Assembly: GCA_964568325.1 (NCBI GenBank)
Contig: CAZMQR010000001.1
Location: forward strand, 1-25,757
DNA length: 25,757 nucleotides
Source of the DNA: an uncultured Chloracidobacterium sp.
GTDB taxonomy: Bacteria > Acidobacteriota > Blastocatellia > Pyrinomonadales > Pyrinomonadaceae
Direction: 5' to 3'
The translations under genes and the position numbers were made by a program. Each line of letters opens with the position of its first letter. The stretch's first letter is position 1. The notes beneath the pieces were generated by a model, which saw nothing but the letters and a program-made list of their open reading frames with translations, searched no databases and had not been told where the DNA came from. This document shows positions 16,208 through 19,101 of this stretch, piece after piece.

Positions 16208-16483
16208 ATGCCAAAATACGTAATCGAACGCGATATTCCCGGCGTCGGCGATTCACCGGCCGACGCCCTGCAGGCGGTCTCGCAGACATCTTGCAACGTG
16301 CTCCGCGAGCTTGGGCCCGAGATACAGTGGGTCCAGAGCTATGTGACCCACGACAAGATCTACTGTGTCTATATCGCCCCGAATGAGGACATTATTCGCG
16401 AGCACGCGACCCGCGGCGGATTCCCCGCGAACGCCATCAACGAGGTCAAGACCGTGATCGACCCGACAACGGCCGAGGCCTGA
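16208..16483 (+). CDS. DUF4242 domain protein
   Basis: MPKYVIERDIPG...WVQSYV...KIYCVYIAPNED.IREHA.RGGFPA. Confidence 0.85.
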   Translation: MPKYVIERDIPGVGDSPADALQAVSQTSCNVLRELGPEIQWVQSYVTHDKIYCVYIAPNEDIIREHATRGGFPANAINEVKTVIDPTTAEA

Positions 16484-16695
16484 TGCCGACCGGCCCAAAA
16501 CCACCGACGATGTCCCCGGCCCACATCCAGCGGGTGGCATTCATTGCCATTCTCTCTTTCCTGTTCTTTCTCGGGATGATGTTTGTCTACTACCTGCGTG
16601 GCTCGCTCCTCTATTTCCTACTCGCGACCGCATTTTTGGTCGTGTACGTGATCACGATGATCTCGTTCGTAAAATTGCGAAAGGGTCGCGGTTAG
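16483..16695 (+). CDS. small hypothetical membrane protein (2 TM helices)
   Basis: TGATG stop-start overlap; two hydrophobic segments. Confidence 0.7.
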   Translation: MPTGPKPPTMSPAHIQRVAFIAILSFLFFLGMMFVYYLRGSLLYFLLATAFLVVYVITMISFVKLRKGRG

Positions 16696-16761
16696 TGCGC
16701 TGATTGGATCGCAACAACACAAATGACCAAACTTGGCCTCAAACCAGATAGTAAGAAATGC

Positions 16762-16790
16762 TTGACAAATCGTTGATATTGTGATACGTT
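16762..16790 (+). promoter_or_regulatory. near-consensus sigma70 promoter with extended -10
   Basis: TTGACA (16762-16767), 17 nt, TACGTT (16785-16790) preceded by TGn. Confidence 0.7.
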
Positions 16791-16850
16791 GTTTCAGTGT
16801 CGCAACCCATAAAGCTCCCGTCTGAGCCGCCAAGATCCTTTTACCAGATT

Positions 16851-17121
16851 TTTTTTTCAAAACTCGGCGGGGCAGCGGGGAAAATGGGGCTAAGTGTTGA
16901 AAACACAGACAGTTATTTGTCCCACTCGGCAGCGGGACAGCAGTGGGACACGCCACTCGCTGCGCCCCGGCAAATACGATCCAAGGTTCGAGGAATTCGG
17001 GCGGGTGAAAGATCATGTTATTTTTTTCAAAATCCGGCAAAACAGCCCCGGAAACCAGCGTAAGTTGTTGAGATCACAGCCACTTAATTGTCCCAGAGGG
17101 GCAGCGGGACACGGTGGGACA
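16851..17121. repeat. two imperfect ~100-bp direct repeats with 170-bp period and internal inverted repeats
   Basis: Both 16851-16950 and 17021-17121 read TTTTTTTCAAAA..CGGC..CAGC..TAAGT(T)GTTGA..CACAG..TTA(T/A)TTGTCCCA..GCAGCGGGACA..GTGGGACA. Confidence 0.85.
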
Positions 17122-17243
17122 GGCGATTCGGGCCGCAGACGCTAAATGATGCAAACATTGATGTTATGCAAAACACTAAATGTAGATGGTTCCGGTGGGA
17201 AACGAAACATCTCGCCAGCCGGTACACACCGATCACGGACGGG

Positions 17244-17272
17244 CTGACTTAAACGGGTTTTTTCTGTATTCT
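17244..17272 (+). promoter_or_regulatory. putative promoter for a leaderless E2 transcript
   Basis: CTGACT, 17 nt, TATTCT ending 8 nt before ATG 17281; no SD. Confidence 0.5.
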
Positions 17273-17280
17273 GTTTGTTT

Positions 17281-19101
17281 ATGAGCGTTGATGTCGTAAT
17301 GCCTCAGATGGGCGAATCGATAACCGAGGGCACTGTTTCCAAATGGCTGAAACAGGTGGGCGACCGTGTCGAGAAGGACGAAGCCATCCTTGAGATCTCG
17401 ACCGATAAGGTAGATGCCGAGGTCCCAAGCCCCGGCGCAGGCGTCCTTCTTGCGATAAACACCGCGGAAGGCGAAACCGTCGAGGTCGGGACGGTCGTCG
17501 CAGTGATCGGTGACGCAGGAGAGGTTCCAGCCGCAGCACCACCTACCGGGCAGGCCTCCGAGTTAGCCTCGAACGCCAGTGAAATGACAGGTCTGGAAGG
17601 TCCCGCTCAACCTCAACCGGTCTCGACGGAGATGCCCGATTCAACGTCAGCGGGGGCAAGAGCGCCTTCCGGACTGCAAGTTGCTGACGCGACGCCGGCA
17701 GCTGCGCCATCGGCAAATGCGACAGAGGTCATCATGCCCCAAATGGGAGAGTCCATTACCGAGGGCACTGTCTCGAAATGGCTTAGAAAGGTCGGTGATG
17801 ATATCGCAAAAGACGAGGCGCTGCTTGAAATATCGACCGACAAGGTCGATGCCGAGGTGCCAAGCCCGGCCGGCGGCAAATTGCTTTCGATAAACGTGAA
17901 CGAAGGTGAGACCGTCGAGGTCGGAGCCGTACTTGCATTGGTTGGTGCTGCTGGTTCCGTCGCACAGCCGACTCAACCTAAGCAAAATGAAGGTCAGGAA
18001 GGCGGGCTTGGCCCCGCCCAAGCTACGCCGGCGTCAGGTCAGGAGCAAACCTCTGCCGTCGCACCGGTTCTGGCCAAAGCAGCCGCTGCAACCGCCGGTA
18101 ACGGCAATGCAACGGTCGATGAACTTCGCCGTCAAAGGTCCAGCCCGCTCGTTCGCAAGATTGCGGCCGAGCACGGCATCGATATCACGCGAATTCCGGG
18201 CAGCGGCATCAGCGGCCGCGTTACAAAGCACGACATTTTGAGCTTTATTGAAACCGGTGCAGCCCTGAGGCCGCAGGATCTGCTTGTAAAAGGAGCGGCC
18301 TCAGTTCCGACTTCCGAACCGCAAGTGCCGAGTTCAAAAACCGAAAGCCAAAAACCCAAAACCGCTTTTGCGGCTCCGCCGCCGATCGCAACTTCGATGG
18401 AGGACCGCATCGAGAAGATGTCGGTAATGCGGAAGAAGATCGCCGAGCATATGACGTTCTCAAAACAGACGTCAGCCCACGTGACCAGCGTTTACGAGAT
18501 CGACATGACGAACGTGGCCAAGTTTCGCAAGGCGAATCAGGATGGGTTTCAGGCAAAGTTCGGCACAAAGCTGACCTTTATGCCGTTCATCTTTCAGGCC
18601 GTGACGGCAGCGATACGCGAGCATCGAATCGTAAATTCGCAGGTCGATGGCGATAACATTATTTACAAGGGCGACATCAATCTCGGCATGGCCGTCGCCC
18701 TCGATTGGGGCCTGATCGTGCCGGTGATCAAAAATGCCGAGACGATGTCGCTGTCCGAGATCGCGGTCAAAGCCAACGACCTCGCCGACCGCGCCCGCGG
18801 CAAAAAACTCAATCCCGACGAGGTGCAGGGCGGAACGTTTACGATAACGAATCCCGGCGTGTTTGGCGGCCTCTTTGGAACGCCGATCATCAACCAACCG
18901 CAAGTGGCGATACTTTGCGTCGGAACGATCGAAAAGCGTCCAAAGGTGATGACATCACCAGACGGAGACGATTACATCGCGGTAAGGCAGATGGCCTATT
19001 TTGCGCTGACCTATGATCATCGCGTGGTTGACGGGGCAGACGCAGAGAAGTTCCTGGCGTATCTCAAGCGATATCTTGAGAATGCGCCGTTTGCAATCTG
19101 A
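17281..19101 (+). CDS. 2-oxo-acid dehydrogenase E2, dihydrolipoamide acyltransferase with two lipoyl domains (SucB/DlaT-like)
   Basis: Two STDKVDAEVPSP lipoyl domains, an SSPLVRKIA E3-binding domain and catalytic LTYDHRVVDGA; the substrate cannot be fixed from sequence. Confidence 0.93.
   Translation: MSVDVVMPQMGESITEGTVSKWLKQVGDRVEKDEAILEISTDKVDAEVPSPGAGVLLAINTAEGETVEVGTVVAVIGDAGEVPAAAPPTGQASELASNASEMTGLEGPAQPQPVSTEMPDSTSAGARAPSGLQVADATPAAAPSANATEVIMPQMGESITEGTVSKWLRKVGDDIAKDEALLEISTDKVDAEVPSPAGGKLLSINVNEGETVEVGAVLALVGAAGSVAQPTQPKQNEGQEGGLGPAQATPASGQEQTSAVAPVLAKAAAATAGNGNATVDELRRQRSSPLVRKIAAEHGIDITRIPGSGISGRVTKHDILSFIETGAALRPQDLLVKGAASVPTSEPQVPSSKTESQKPKTAFAAPPPIATSMEDRIEKMSVMRKKIAEHMTFSKQTSAHVTSVYEIDMTNVAKFRKANQDGFQAKFGTKLTFMPFIFQAVTAAIREHRIVNSQVDGDNIIYKGDINLGMAVALDWGLIVPVIKNAETMSLSEIAVKANDLADRARGKKLNPDEVQGGTFTITNPGVFGGLFGTPIINQPQVAILCVGTIEKRPKVMTSPDGDDYIAVRQMAYFALTYDHRVVDGADAEKFLAYLKRYLENAPFAI

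Follow-up and report, generated by a model that had tools for sequence, protein, structure and literature searches.

DnaA, which acts at oriC, datA, DARS and the dnaA promoter, is an ATPase with a C-terminal helix-turn-helix (HTH) and recognises asymmetric boxes of 8-9 bp that occur in both orientations beside an A/T-rich tract. The dnaA gene itself lies beside such a box cluster, and further scattered clusters are regulatory or titration sites. UP elements follow the consensus AAAWWTWTTTTNNNAAANNN, and the operators of OmpR/PhoB regulators (pho boxes; the direct repeats of Streptomyces PhoP) combine 7-8 conserved and 3-4 variable bases in an 11-bp phasing, in some cases as long arrays. For REPIN-RAYT pairs, parts of the published accounts describe a low-copy, vertically inherited gene that is flanked by its own repeat and accompanied by tens of intergenic copies, with several matched families possible per genome (bioRxiv 10.1101/2022.05.22.493013; PMC3337134). 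Here we analyse a window of 25,757 nucleotides (the whole stretch of DNA under study, positions 1 to 25,757 of contig CAZMQR010000001.1, assembly GCA_964568325.1) from an uncultured Chloracidobacterium sp. of the Pyrinomonadaceae. Two tandem units in this window, upstream of a 2-oxoacid dehydrogenase E2 gene, belong to a dispersed family of intergenic units with four short boxes each, and units of this kind adjoin genes for an ATPase with an HTH (hereafter ATPase-HTH), the paralogs of which go together with different box variants. In its logic this arrangement most resembles DnaA with its box clusters and the pairs of REPIN and RAYT; in its anatomy it comes nearest to iteron origins with initiator-helicases and to UP-element promoters.

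As in the DnaA system, the protein is an ATPase with a C-terminal HTH, its gene lies beside a box cluster and further clusters are scattered. Unlike DnaA, it has a RecA/superfamily 4 (SF4, DnaB-like) fold instead of AAA+ and occurs as several paralogs with box variants of their own; the boxes are set in stereotyped 108-bp modules that are gained and lost between species, and the family has been traced mainly in one Pyrinomonadaceae genus and in some other metagenome-assembled genomes (MAGs) of Acidobacteriota. The resemblance to REPIN-RAYT is one of logic only, i.e., a low-copy gene with matched dispersed repeats and several such pairs per genome. The partner is not an HUH/Y1 transposase, and the units have neither a GTAG or CGTC tag nor simple palindrome pairs.

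A helicase-type ATPase gene next to a repeat array and an A/T tract is likewise found in iteron origins such as the Rep-ori of staphylococcal satellites, phage P4 alpha and SV40 large T antigen (with GAGGC pentamers and an AT tract), but the present units are distributed in dozens of chromosomal copies, their partner is of the SF4/RecA and not the SF3 type, and there is no primase and no mobile-element context. As in UP-element promoters of the rrnB P1 type, the A/T tract fits the consensus AAAWWTWTTTTNNNAAANNN and lies 3 nt before a -35-like hexamer, in register with it. This hexamer (GGGACA) agrees with TTGACA at 4/6 positions, and the spacer of 17±1 nt fits a sigma-70 promoter; the -10-like hexamer keeps T-A-A, but its last base is unconserved. 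Such promoters differ in that they lack the three extra -35-like boxes that follow downstream here, and one third of the units do not precede a gene of the same direction. The homologous promoter cassettes in front of unrelated genes observed here recall "Promoter reuse in prokaryotes" (PMC3575422), part of which describes homologous promoter cassettes before unrelated genes. Boxes 3 and 4 of the units, and the seven-box arrays of the related genome G024, share the 11-bp phasing of OmpR/PhoB operators, but the partner is no winged-helix response regulator, and each unit has an inverted box and a remote fourth box in addition.

The two units in the window, of ~108 nt each, occupy positions 16845-16952 and 17015-17123, between a small membrane open reading frame (ORF) ending at 16695 and the E2 gene with its ATG at 17281. 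An initial annotation, made from the letters alone, had described a two-unit repeat with a period of about 170 nt, and both units lie where it had placed them, with a start-to-start distance of 170-171 nt. Its description of a T7-CAAAA tract, TAAGT and TGTCCC followed by two GGGACA copies is correct, as is the perfect 9-bp inverted repeat in unit 1 (16918-16926 and 16942-16950). It had missed a fourth box upstream, the promoter-like geometry, a strong promoter 50 nt upstream and the larger family to which the units belong. Tandem Repeats Finder reported only an 11-nt box repeat in this region and not the 170-nt period, because the two copies are only ~73-78% alike. The features of the units are:

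16845..16952, plus strand: unit 1, GGGACA family (nhmmer E = 1.2e-30; R1 E = 2.9e-20)
16849..16862, no strand: A/T tract of unit 1, T9CAAAA, like an UP element or a DNA unwinding element (DUE); T/A columns 0.94-0.99 conserved in 152 copies
16867..16875, plus strand: box 1 of unit 1, GCGGGGCAG, one mismatch to GCGGGACAG, at the -35 position relative to the A/T tract
16890..16894, plus strand: CTAAG of unit 1, with the conserved TAA at a -10-like position
16918..16925, minus strand: box 2 of unit 1, TGTCCCAC, an inverted box copy, at least 0.99 conserved in the family
16932..16939, plus strand: box 3 of unit 1, GCGGGACA
16943..16950, plus strand: box 4 of unit 1, GTGGGACA, 11 nt past box 3 and a perfect complement of box 2
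17015..17123, plus strand: unit 2, GGGACA family (nhmmer E = 4e-27; R1 E = 1.3e-16)
17021..17032, no strand: A/T tract of unit 2, T7CAAAA
17037..17045, plus strand: box 1 of unit 2, GCAAAACAG, degenerate
17060..17064, plus strand: GTAAG of unit 2, with the conserved TAA
17089..17096, minus strand: box 2 of unit 2, TGTCCCAG, inverted
17104..17111, plus strand: box 3 of unit 2, GCGGGACA
17114..17121, plus strand: box 4 of unit 2, GTGGGACA

Copies outside the window, the absence of which, together with that of motif conservation in relatives, the initial annotation had named as grounds for abandoning its interpretation, do occur. The MAG that holds the window (G000, Pyrinomonadaceae; 2.7 Mb in 472 contigs, 80% complete; C-numbers below are its contigs) contains 15 full units at 10 loci, five of them with tandem pairs, as detected with nhmmer. 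A covariance model based on sequence alone detects units, at most 37 per genome, in 44 of the 81 genus genomes. A strict triple-box pattern (TGTCCCRC-N6-10-GGGACA-N3-7-GGGACA) occurs 12 times in G000, 3-22 times each in 7 of 24 other genus genomes drawn, and not at all in 16 genomes of other families of the class, and the same pattern written backwards, as a control, is absent from all 41 genomes. The whole evidence base for the units and for their pairing with the ATPase-HTH is comparative, and the kin genomes of the genus set are non-independent samples. The genus tallies take in one unpublished genome, G023 (two weak unit matches, no protein match), on which no specific claim depends.

An alignment of 152 non-redundant copies, from which the geometry and conservation figures derive, yields the consensus aaaa-T8-n-AAAA-nnn-gcGGGACAg-N15-(c)GTAA(c/g)-N17/18-(g)TTA-nnn-TGTCCCaC-N7-gtGGGACA-N3/4-gtGGGACA. 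The distances within the unit are fixed to ±1 nt. The A/T tract, 13-17 bp long, ends 3 nt before box 1, and its T run ends 10-11 nt before that box. The hexamer of box 1, which is the least conserved box of the family, is separated from the TAA (conserved at 0.86/0.92/1.00) by 17 nt (42 copies), 16 nt (14 copies) or 18 nt (4 copies); box 2 starts 27-28 nt past the TAA, and boxes 3 and 4 are direct and 10-11 nt apart. Crude gene calls (longest ORF) put the next gene downstream on the strand of the unit in 90 cases and on the other strand in 47. Downstream genes include those for E2, 2-oxoacid dehydrogenase E1 alpha, alanine dehydrogenase, thiolase, isochorismatase, YbaK and rpoC, and the tandem pair on C216 lies upstream of aroC.

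A scan for one inverted plus two direct boxes revealed about 12 sister units in G000 with the same scaffold, in which CTGAAACA/TGTTTCAG takes the place of the boxes at all four positions. The layout of these TGAAACA units is T7-GCGCGAAA, an A-rich spacer, GTAAC, N18 and GTTACGG. On C128 a TGAAACA unit is directly followed by a GGGACA unit, and one TGAAACA array lies upstream of tRNA-Arg and tRNA-His. That all four boxes have switched together on one scaffold points, to judge from sequence, to a reader acting in trans whose recognition is family-specific.

A candidate for this reader is encoded 43 nt downstream of the unit on C32. The 398-aa protein, the gene of which spans L012:9161-10357 on the minus strand, has the Pfam domains AAA_25 and HTH_23. 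In its AlphaFold model (pLDDT 82) the RecA-type core is closest to DnaB and T7 gp4, and a helical HTH at residues 269-319 is followed by a disordered tail. PHROG matches are to primase/helicase families; the HTH is weakly like region 4 of sigma-70 factors of the extracytoplasmic function (ECF) type, Cbp1 and resolvase HTHs, the match to a resolvase HTH in the PDB being marginal, and PADLOC gave weak matches at the P-loop level only. Comparisons with Pfam, PHROG, PDB sequences, PADLOC and structures detected no nuclease, transposase or recombinase domain. Databases name the protein only "AAA family ATPase" or "KaiC/GvpD/RAD55 family RecA-like ATPase", and proteins with AAA_25 and an HTH are also common in Bacteroidota and in some phages.

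Homologues are present in 32 of the 81 genus genomes, in one to four copies per genome and in an ordinary chromosomal context. A full unit lies within ~400 nt upstream of at least 20 of the 38 homologue genes fetched, mostly pointing away from the gene, and two more homologue genes have R1 unit matches. At the divergent loci the gene's own TTGACA -35 abuts the A/T tract of the unit on the other strand, so that the tract also takes the UP position for a consensus promoter on that strand. The boxes beside the paralogs are of the types GGGACA (at least 11 cases), TGAAACA, GGAACA, GGAACG, GAGACA, GTGGACA and CCGGACA.

The dispersed boxes follow the paralogs. G000 has two paralogs (on C32 and C163) and two box families, the C163 paralog lying beside TGAAACA. 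Triple boxes of the GGAAC type, like those of all types other than GGGACA detected with exact patterns, number 12 in G082 (GGAACA) and 10 in G079 (GGAACG), where they are the same as in the gene-adjacent units, and are absent from G000, G013 and G048; GTGGAC-type boxes (three) were found in G072 only among the genomes tested; and TGAAAC-type boxes number 11 in G000, one each in G048 and G058, and none in G013 and G021. G013 and G048, which are complete and lack the gene, have essentially none of the dispersed box families. In the genomes tested, a dispersed box family thus occurs only where a paralog adjoins a unit of that box type. Over the 81 genomes, units and gene occur together in 27, the protein alone in 5, units alone in 17 and neither in 32 (odds ratio 10, Fisher p = 1e-5, genomes being counted without correction for phylogeny), and the gene is present in 22 of the 26 genomes with at least five units, the remaining four being 68-88% complete. 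The association extends to the recognition helix, in which the motif S-[KR]-S is found in 14/14 paralogs beside GGAC-type boxes and in 0/5 beside AAC-type boxes, the five AAC-type paralogs being spread over at least three clades. The suggestion in the initial annotation of a protein-binding array of iteron- or origin-like type fits best: for each box family, one unit adjoins a gene for a helicase-fold ATPase with an HTH, and the paralogs of this protein vary along with the box sequence. A description of such a pairing of protein and sites was not found in the literature searched on Acidobacteria repeats, promoter reuse, REPINs and iteron helicases, and searches with the unit motifs returned unrelated papers only.

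Some observations on the loci of the ATPase-HTH gene stand apart from this pairing. A segment of promoter and unit upstream of the orthologous gene (75% identity) is inverted between G000 and G082, its unit pointing at the gene in G000 (C32, L277) and away from it in G082 (C2:1879324-1880807; L275/L233); among the paralogs, about five pairs of unit and gene have the same direction and about 15 the opposite. This could reflect either an old inversion or an invertible switch. Directly downstream of the gene on C32, on the other strand, L012:8511-9106 holds a PIN_10/DUF5615 gene with a small upstream ORF, which looks like a toxin-antitoxin pair.

The units in the window are part of a larger cassette, the remaining features of which are:

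16696..17260, plus strand: whole cassette (promoter, two units and conserved tail), ~560 nt, alignable in G082
16762..16790, plus strand: promoter P0 of the sigma-70 type, reading into the units (TTGACA 16762-16767, a 17-nt spacer with TGTGA, and TACGTT 16785-16790)
17123..17195, plus strand: conserved tail past the last unit, including GCTAAAT at 17141-17147, highly conserved in comparison with G082
17281..19101, plus strand: 2-oxoacid dehydrogenase E2 gene, outside the element (Pfam: two lipoyl domains, E3-binding and catalytic domains)

Transcription from P0 would start near 16797. Near-identical modules, which resemble P0 well beyond the hexamers, lie 18-125 nt upstream of all ten arrays of GGGACA units in G000 (eight found by a 9-of-12 scan, those on C178 and C56 by eye) and ahead of many units of the TGAAACA sister family, and a stringent promoter pattern has 13 matches in the whole of G000, 10 of which are followed by units. 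In other genomes the 9-of-12 scan detects such a promoter ahead of fewer arrays, 45 of 116. By eye, an sTAAw motif at +26 from box 4 also follows the last units on C198, C145, C287 and C216. Two strong promoters in tandem at a contig end (G000:C85:8581-8727) may represent the promoter region of an rRNA operon; in the first of these, 26 of 27 bases around the -10 and start region are those of P0, and GGGAC/GGAACA boxes 11 nt apart follow.

Among the genomes compared, G000 and the closely related G082 alone have the cassette ahead of E2. The orthologous E2 genes of G048, G096, G013 and G024 have no cassette; there the upstream ORF is longer and the spacer measures ~100 nt. The 70-aa membrane ORF in the window (16483-16695) corresponds to the N-terminal part of the longer ORF in G048, G096 and G013; in G000 and G082 the cassette seems to have taken the place of the 3' half. 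The motif TGTATTCT at 17265-17272, which ends 8 nt before the E2 ATG, is kept in all five relatives with or without the cassette, and may act as the E2 gene's own promoter, the resulting mRNA being very short or leaderless.

Between G000 and G082 the orthologous cassettes are identical at 89% of motif positions, 81% of the remaining unit positions and 63% of the other cassette DNA, and P0 is almost invariant. Third codon positions of E2, as a neutral proxy, are 65% identical. As the identity of the units exceeds this proxy, they are under selection in place, which bears out the initial annotation in its view that the motifs are selected and the spacers drift.

The spacer between rpoB and rpoC also differs between genomes, with a unit in some and a different palindrome in G000; in two genomes the unit in this spacer has no P0-like promoter. 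In L157 and L050, from two genomes other than G000, this unit carries an extra inverted box upstream of the T run, which pairs perfectly with box 1 (CGCTGTCCCGCAG and CTGCGGGACAGCG) and encloses the A/T tract in a hairpin with a 13-bp stem directly past the rpoB stop codon.

Several other repetitive elements were observed near the units or resemble them. An element of the IS3 family adjoins units far above chance (G064 L178-L181, L186-L195 and L217-L227; G024 L201-L204). It measures ~1.39 kb, has an rve DDE domain and 3-bp target duplications, and carries GTCCTG and TGTCCCA motifs in its ends, TGTGTCGTCCTGAAA. At least nine of the ~11 left ends in G064 lie 15-60 nt upstream of the T run of a unit, in constant orientation, and in G024 the element is located inside arrays of boxes with an 11-nt period. 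In G024 (L201-L204 flanks), the model finds no GGGACA units; arrays with this period, made of 5-8 direct boxes of the types TGAAAC, GGAACA and CGAACA and in some cases also GGGACA, follow an inverted box (GTGTTTCA, TGTTC), and there is a run of AAATTCC heptamers. G000 has other families of long hairpins, with arms of three tandem ~10-nt repeats of a 7-nt box (ACAGGAT, CACAGAT, CACGAAA, CGCAGAG, CCAAAG), e.g., at C385:2254, C59:2067, C114:1748, C266:254, C33:8624 and in the rpoB-rpoC spacer on C140. The CGCAGAG family is flanked by inverted GGTAGTGGTTCAGTTTGAAA ends, in the manner of MITEs (miniature transposable elements with inverted repeats).

On balance, though with no great assurance, we favour an interpretation of the units as dispersed double-stranded DNA sites for the cognate ATPase-HTH, which would assemble on the boxes and control transcription starting at or running through the unit. 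The 7-8-bp boxes, with the core G-R-R-A-C-A, would be its recognition sequences. A unit has four, the first 3 nt past the A/T tract and next an inverted one and two direct ones with a phasing of 11 bp. Each paralog would have its own box variant and its own unit population, with one unit beside the gene and a handful to ~37 scattered intergenically. The layout of the unit resembles that of a promoter, with an UP-like A/T tract, box 1 in the place of a -35, a distance of 17±1 bp, TAA in the place of a -10 and boxes 2-4 at about +17 to +50, and the cognate protein would occupy the -35 position and the early transcribed region, where the ATPase may oligomerise or remodel the DNA. In the window, the controlled gene would be the E2 dehydrogenase, fed by P0. 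The units are envisaged to multiply and to be lost like REPINs. The comparisons show the family with its anatomy, its turnover from species to species, the adjacency of gene and unit and the match of paralog and box type; we infer that the HTH binds the boxes and that the unit is a promoter, and likewise the direction of regulation and any role of the ATPase. The same anatomy also fits an initiator-type site, with the boxes as iterons and the A/T tract as unwinding element, and the behaviour of the population fits a REPIN-like replicator; the three interpretations are mutually compatible.

Several observations weigh against control of transcription by the ATPase-HTH. The T at -7 that is conserved in sigma-70 promoters is missing from the -10-like motif, and a ring-helicase fold is unusual for a transcription factor. 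About one unit in three points away from the next gene or converges on it, a convergent setting that Pfam confirms for C198, C287 and C56. The genes downstream of 110 arrays are mutually unrelated, without any protein cluster larger than two, which is odd for a regulon. In 17 genomes units are present and the gene was not detected, most of these having 1-4 weak matches or being fragmented MAGs. Finally, the purine/pyrimidine (R/Y) position of box 2 covaries with that of boxes 3 and 4, including a flip from A-T to G-C between orthologues of G000 and G082, which could mean that the hairpin matters, in RNA or as a cruciform.

A bolder version of the favoured interpretation, which we advance only tentatively and hold to be rather unlikely, is that of a new two-part, genome-resident system in which ATPase-HTHs of the DnaB fold each own stereotyped origin- or promoter-like units and the box co-evolves with the recognition helix. 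In its strongest form, a self-loading, sequence-specific ring ATPase would open DNA at dozens of chromosomal sites, which, if true, would amount to ATP-driven promoter opening or to local starts of replication or repair. We know of no mechanism of this kind for bacterial chromosomes.

Among the rival explanations, the one that survives best takes the units for a REPIN-like selfish population, non-autonomous, copied or maintained by the ATPase-HTH and without host function, so that effects on neighbouring genes would be incidental. We regard this as unlikely but worth serious attention. In its favour are the ordinary context of a gene in one to four copies, its own flanking unit, the handful to ~37 dispersed units of its box type, the several specificity-matched families per genome, the unrelated downstream genes and the fast turnover, as seen in the E2 cassette confined to G000 and G082 and the variable unit in the rpoB-rpoC spacer. 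The logic is that of the maintenance of REPINs by RAYTs, as set out in part of a study (bioRxiv 10.1101/2022.05.22.493013). Yet no domain of a nuclease, transposase or recombinase was detected in the protein, and neither terminal inverted repeats nor target duplications were seen; the comparison of filled and empty sites at E2 and rpoB-rpoC showed no target duplication, although this is a weak test as the boundaries are blurred. Copies within one genome are only 60-75% alike and therefore old and not recently spread, the units are conserved above the neutral rate at an orthologous site, and mobility does not need a stereotyped promoter-like spacing.

Known families of mobile or recombining elements do not accommodate the units either, which lack the defining features of REP/RAYT, MITEs, tyrosine-recombinase sites, an ECF regulon and any Rfam family. 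REP/REPIN palindromes are imperfect, often form inverted pairs and measure 20-40 nt; the present unit measures ~108 nt and is asymmetric. Genes of the RAYT-like Y1_Tnp type occur in 78 of the 81 genus genomes (1-19 per genome), and within 1.2 kb of the seven in G000 no clustering of GGGACA or TGAAAC boxes was found. The ends of the unit, an A/T run and GGGACA, are not inverted copies of each other as in a MITE, and the absence of terminal inverted repeats, assessed by eye, speaks against a remnant left by a mobile element in the simple sense that the initial annotation had considered. Its tyrosine-recombinase sites are not supported: the inverted boxes with their 7-nt spacer resemble a core site of the dif, lox or FRT kind, in which partner sites have an identical spacer of 6-8 bp, but the central spacer differs in every copy and no integrase was found among the neighbours tested. 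A fit to sigma-54 or IHF consensus sequences was not seen by eye.

A view of the units as structured domains of an RNA transcribed from P0, either a long leader or a small RNA, is improbable to us; in it, box 2 would pair alternately with boxes 1, 3 or 4 and so act as a switch, or the boxes would sequester an RNA-binding protein. A strong conserved promoter reads into every array of G000, and the hairpin of boxes 2 and 3 has a mean of -12.0 kcal/mol against -4.0 for shuffles. The R/Y states of these two boxes covary (A:T 105, G:C 20, A:C 15, G:T 10). The orthologous units of G000 and G082 differ by a double change of A-T to G-C, concerted A/T/T and G/C/C states are seen in the tandem pair on C216, and the boxes within a unit remain mutually complementary across families. 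However, the covariation is just as strong (odds ratio ~22) for boxes 3 and 4, direct repeats unable to pair with each other, as for the boxes that do pair. A:C exceeds G:T, the wrong way round for an RNA of the forward strand, and the mismatch types favour neither RNA strand clearly. Beyond the box hairpin, which is invariant and the only one found by RNAalifold, no helix has support. The inverted repeat TAAGT...ACTTA reported in the initial annotation is present in unit 2; over 152 copies the folding of this second spacer does not surpass that of shuffles (p = 0.43), and support for spacer 1 is weak. Rfam gave no match at gathering thresholds in the whole window, and two matches at chance level (E > 5) in 16600-17350. 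There is no intrinsic terminator at the T runs or past the units, under half of the arrays in other genomes have the upstream promoter, the G024 arrays of seven or more direct boxes cannot form hairpins, and the cognate partner bears an HTH of the DNA type. The repeated RNA domains of the initial annotation are not supported.

Somewhat more doubtful still is the explanation of the units as origin-like sites for helicase loading, at which a self-loading initiator-helicase would bind the boxes as iterons and open the A/T tract, providing extra starts of replication or repair. It draws on the DnaB/gp4 fold and the PHROG matches, on the array of direct and inverted boxes beside an A/T tract that adjoins the gene, and on the promoter that fires into the unit, since some origins are activated by transcription. 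Part of the work on staphylococcal satellites offers a precedent in self-loading Rep helicases with iteron origins (PMC9371898; bioRxiv 10.64898/2026.10.17.759575). As for the anatomy of iteron origins, the adjacent initiator gene is present in that a unit lies near at least 20 of 38 homologues, and the four predicted boxes are accompanied by an A/T tract, but its 13-17 bp are short for an unwinding element. Instead of one origin per replicon, a genome has 15 to 37 units, in places several within 10 kb, and no primase, other replication gene or mobile-element gene was found nearby. Inspection of coordinates showed no obvious replichore polarity in G096, and in G082 single-strand runs are within chance after collapsing tandem pairs. 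To our knowledge, bacterial chromosomes with multiple origins have not been described.

The weakest explanation, which we consider very improbable, sees plain promoters of an alternative ECF-type sigma factor, with the box as -35, CGTAA as -10 and the ATPase-HTH gene as a mere member of the regulon: the GRRAC core with N16-17 and (C)GTAA does resemble ECF promoters (cf. TGAAAC-N16-CGTA of B. subtilis SigW and -35 elements of the GGAAC type) and a consensus UP element is in register, but none of the 12 Sigma70_r2 genes in G000 or G082 shares a contig with a unit or lies within ~8 kb of one, so that there is no autoregulated sigma gene, and neither the three further boxes downstream nor the box type that follows the ATPase-HTH paralog genome by genome is explained.

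If the pairing of ATPase-HTH and units holds, it would add to REPIN-RAYT a second case in which a protein maintains, within a bacterial chromosome, a population of short DNA elements of its own, with an enzyme class quite different from RAYT and with elements that look promoter- or origin-like. At least five variants of the box have matched paralogs, and a single cell sometimes has two to four of these, which would provide a natural series for an HTH recognition code. The pairing may also explain how strong promoter cassettes come to stand before unrelated genes of Acidobacteriota, such as E2 in the window and tRNA genes, rpoC and aroC elsewhere. For the host, a soil and wastewater Acidobacterium with dispersed intergenic units, it raises the question of the role of a helicase-fold ATPase at dozens of fixed chromosomal sites, and the units with their promoter are candidate expression parts for a phylum without genetic tools.

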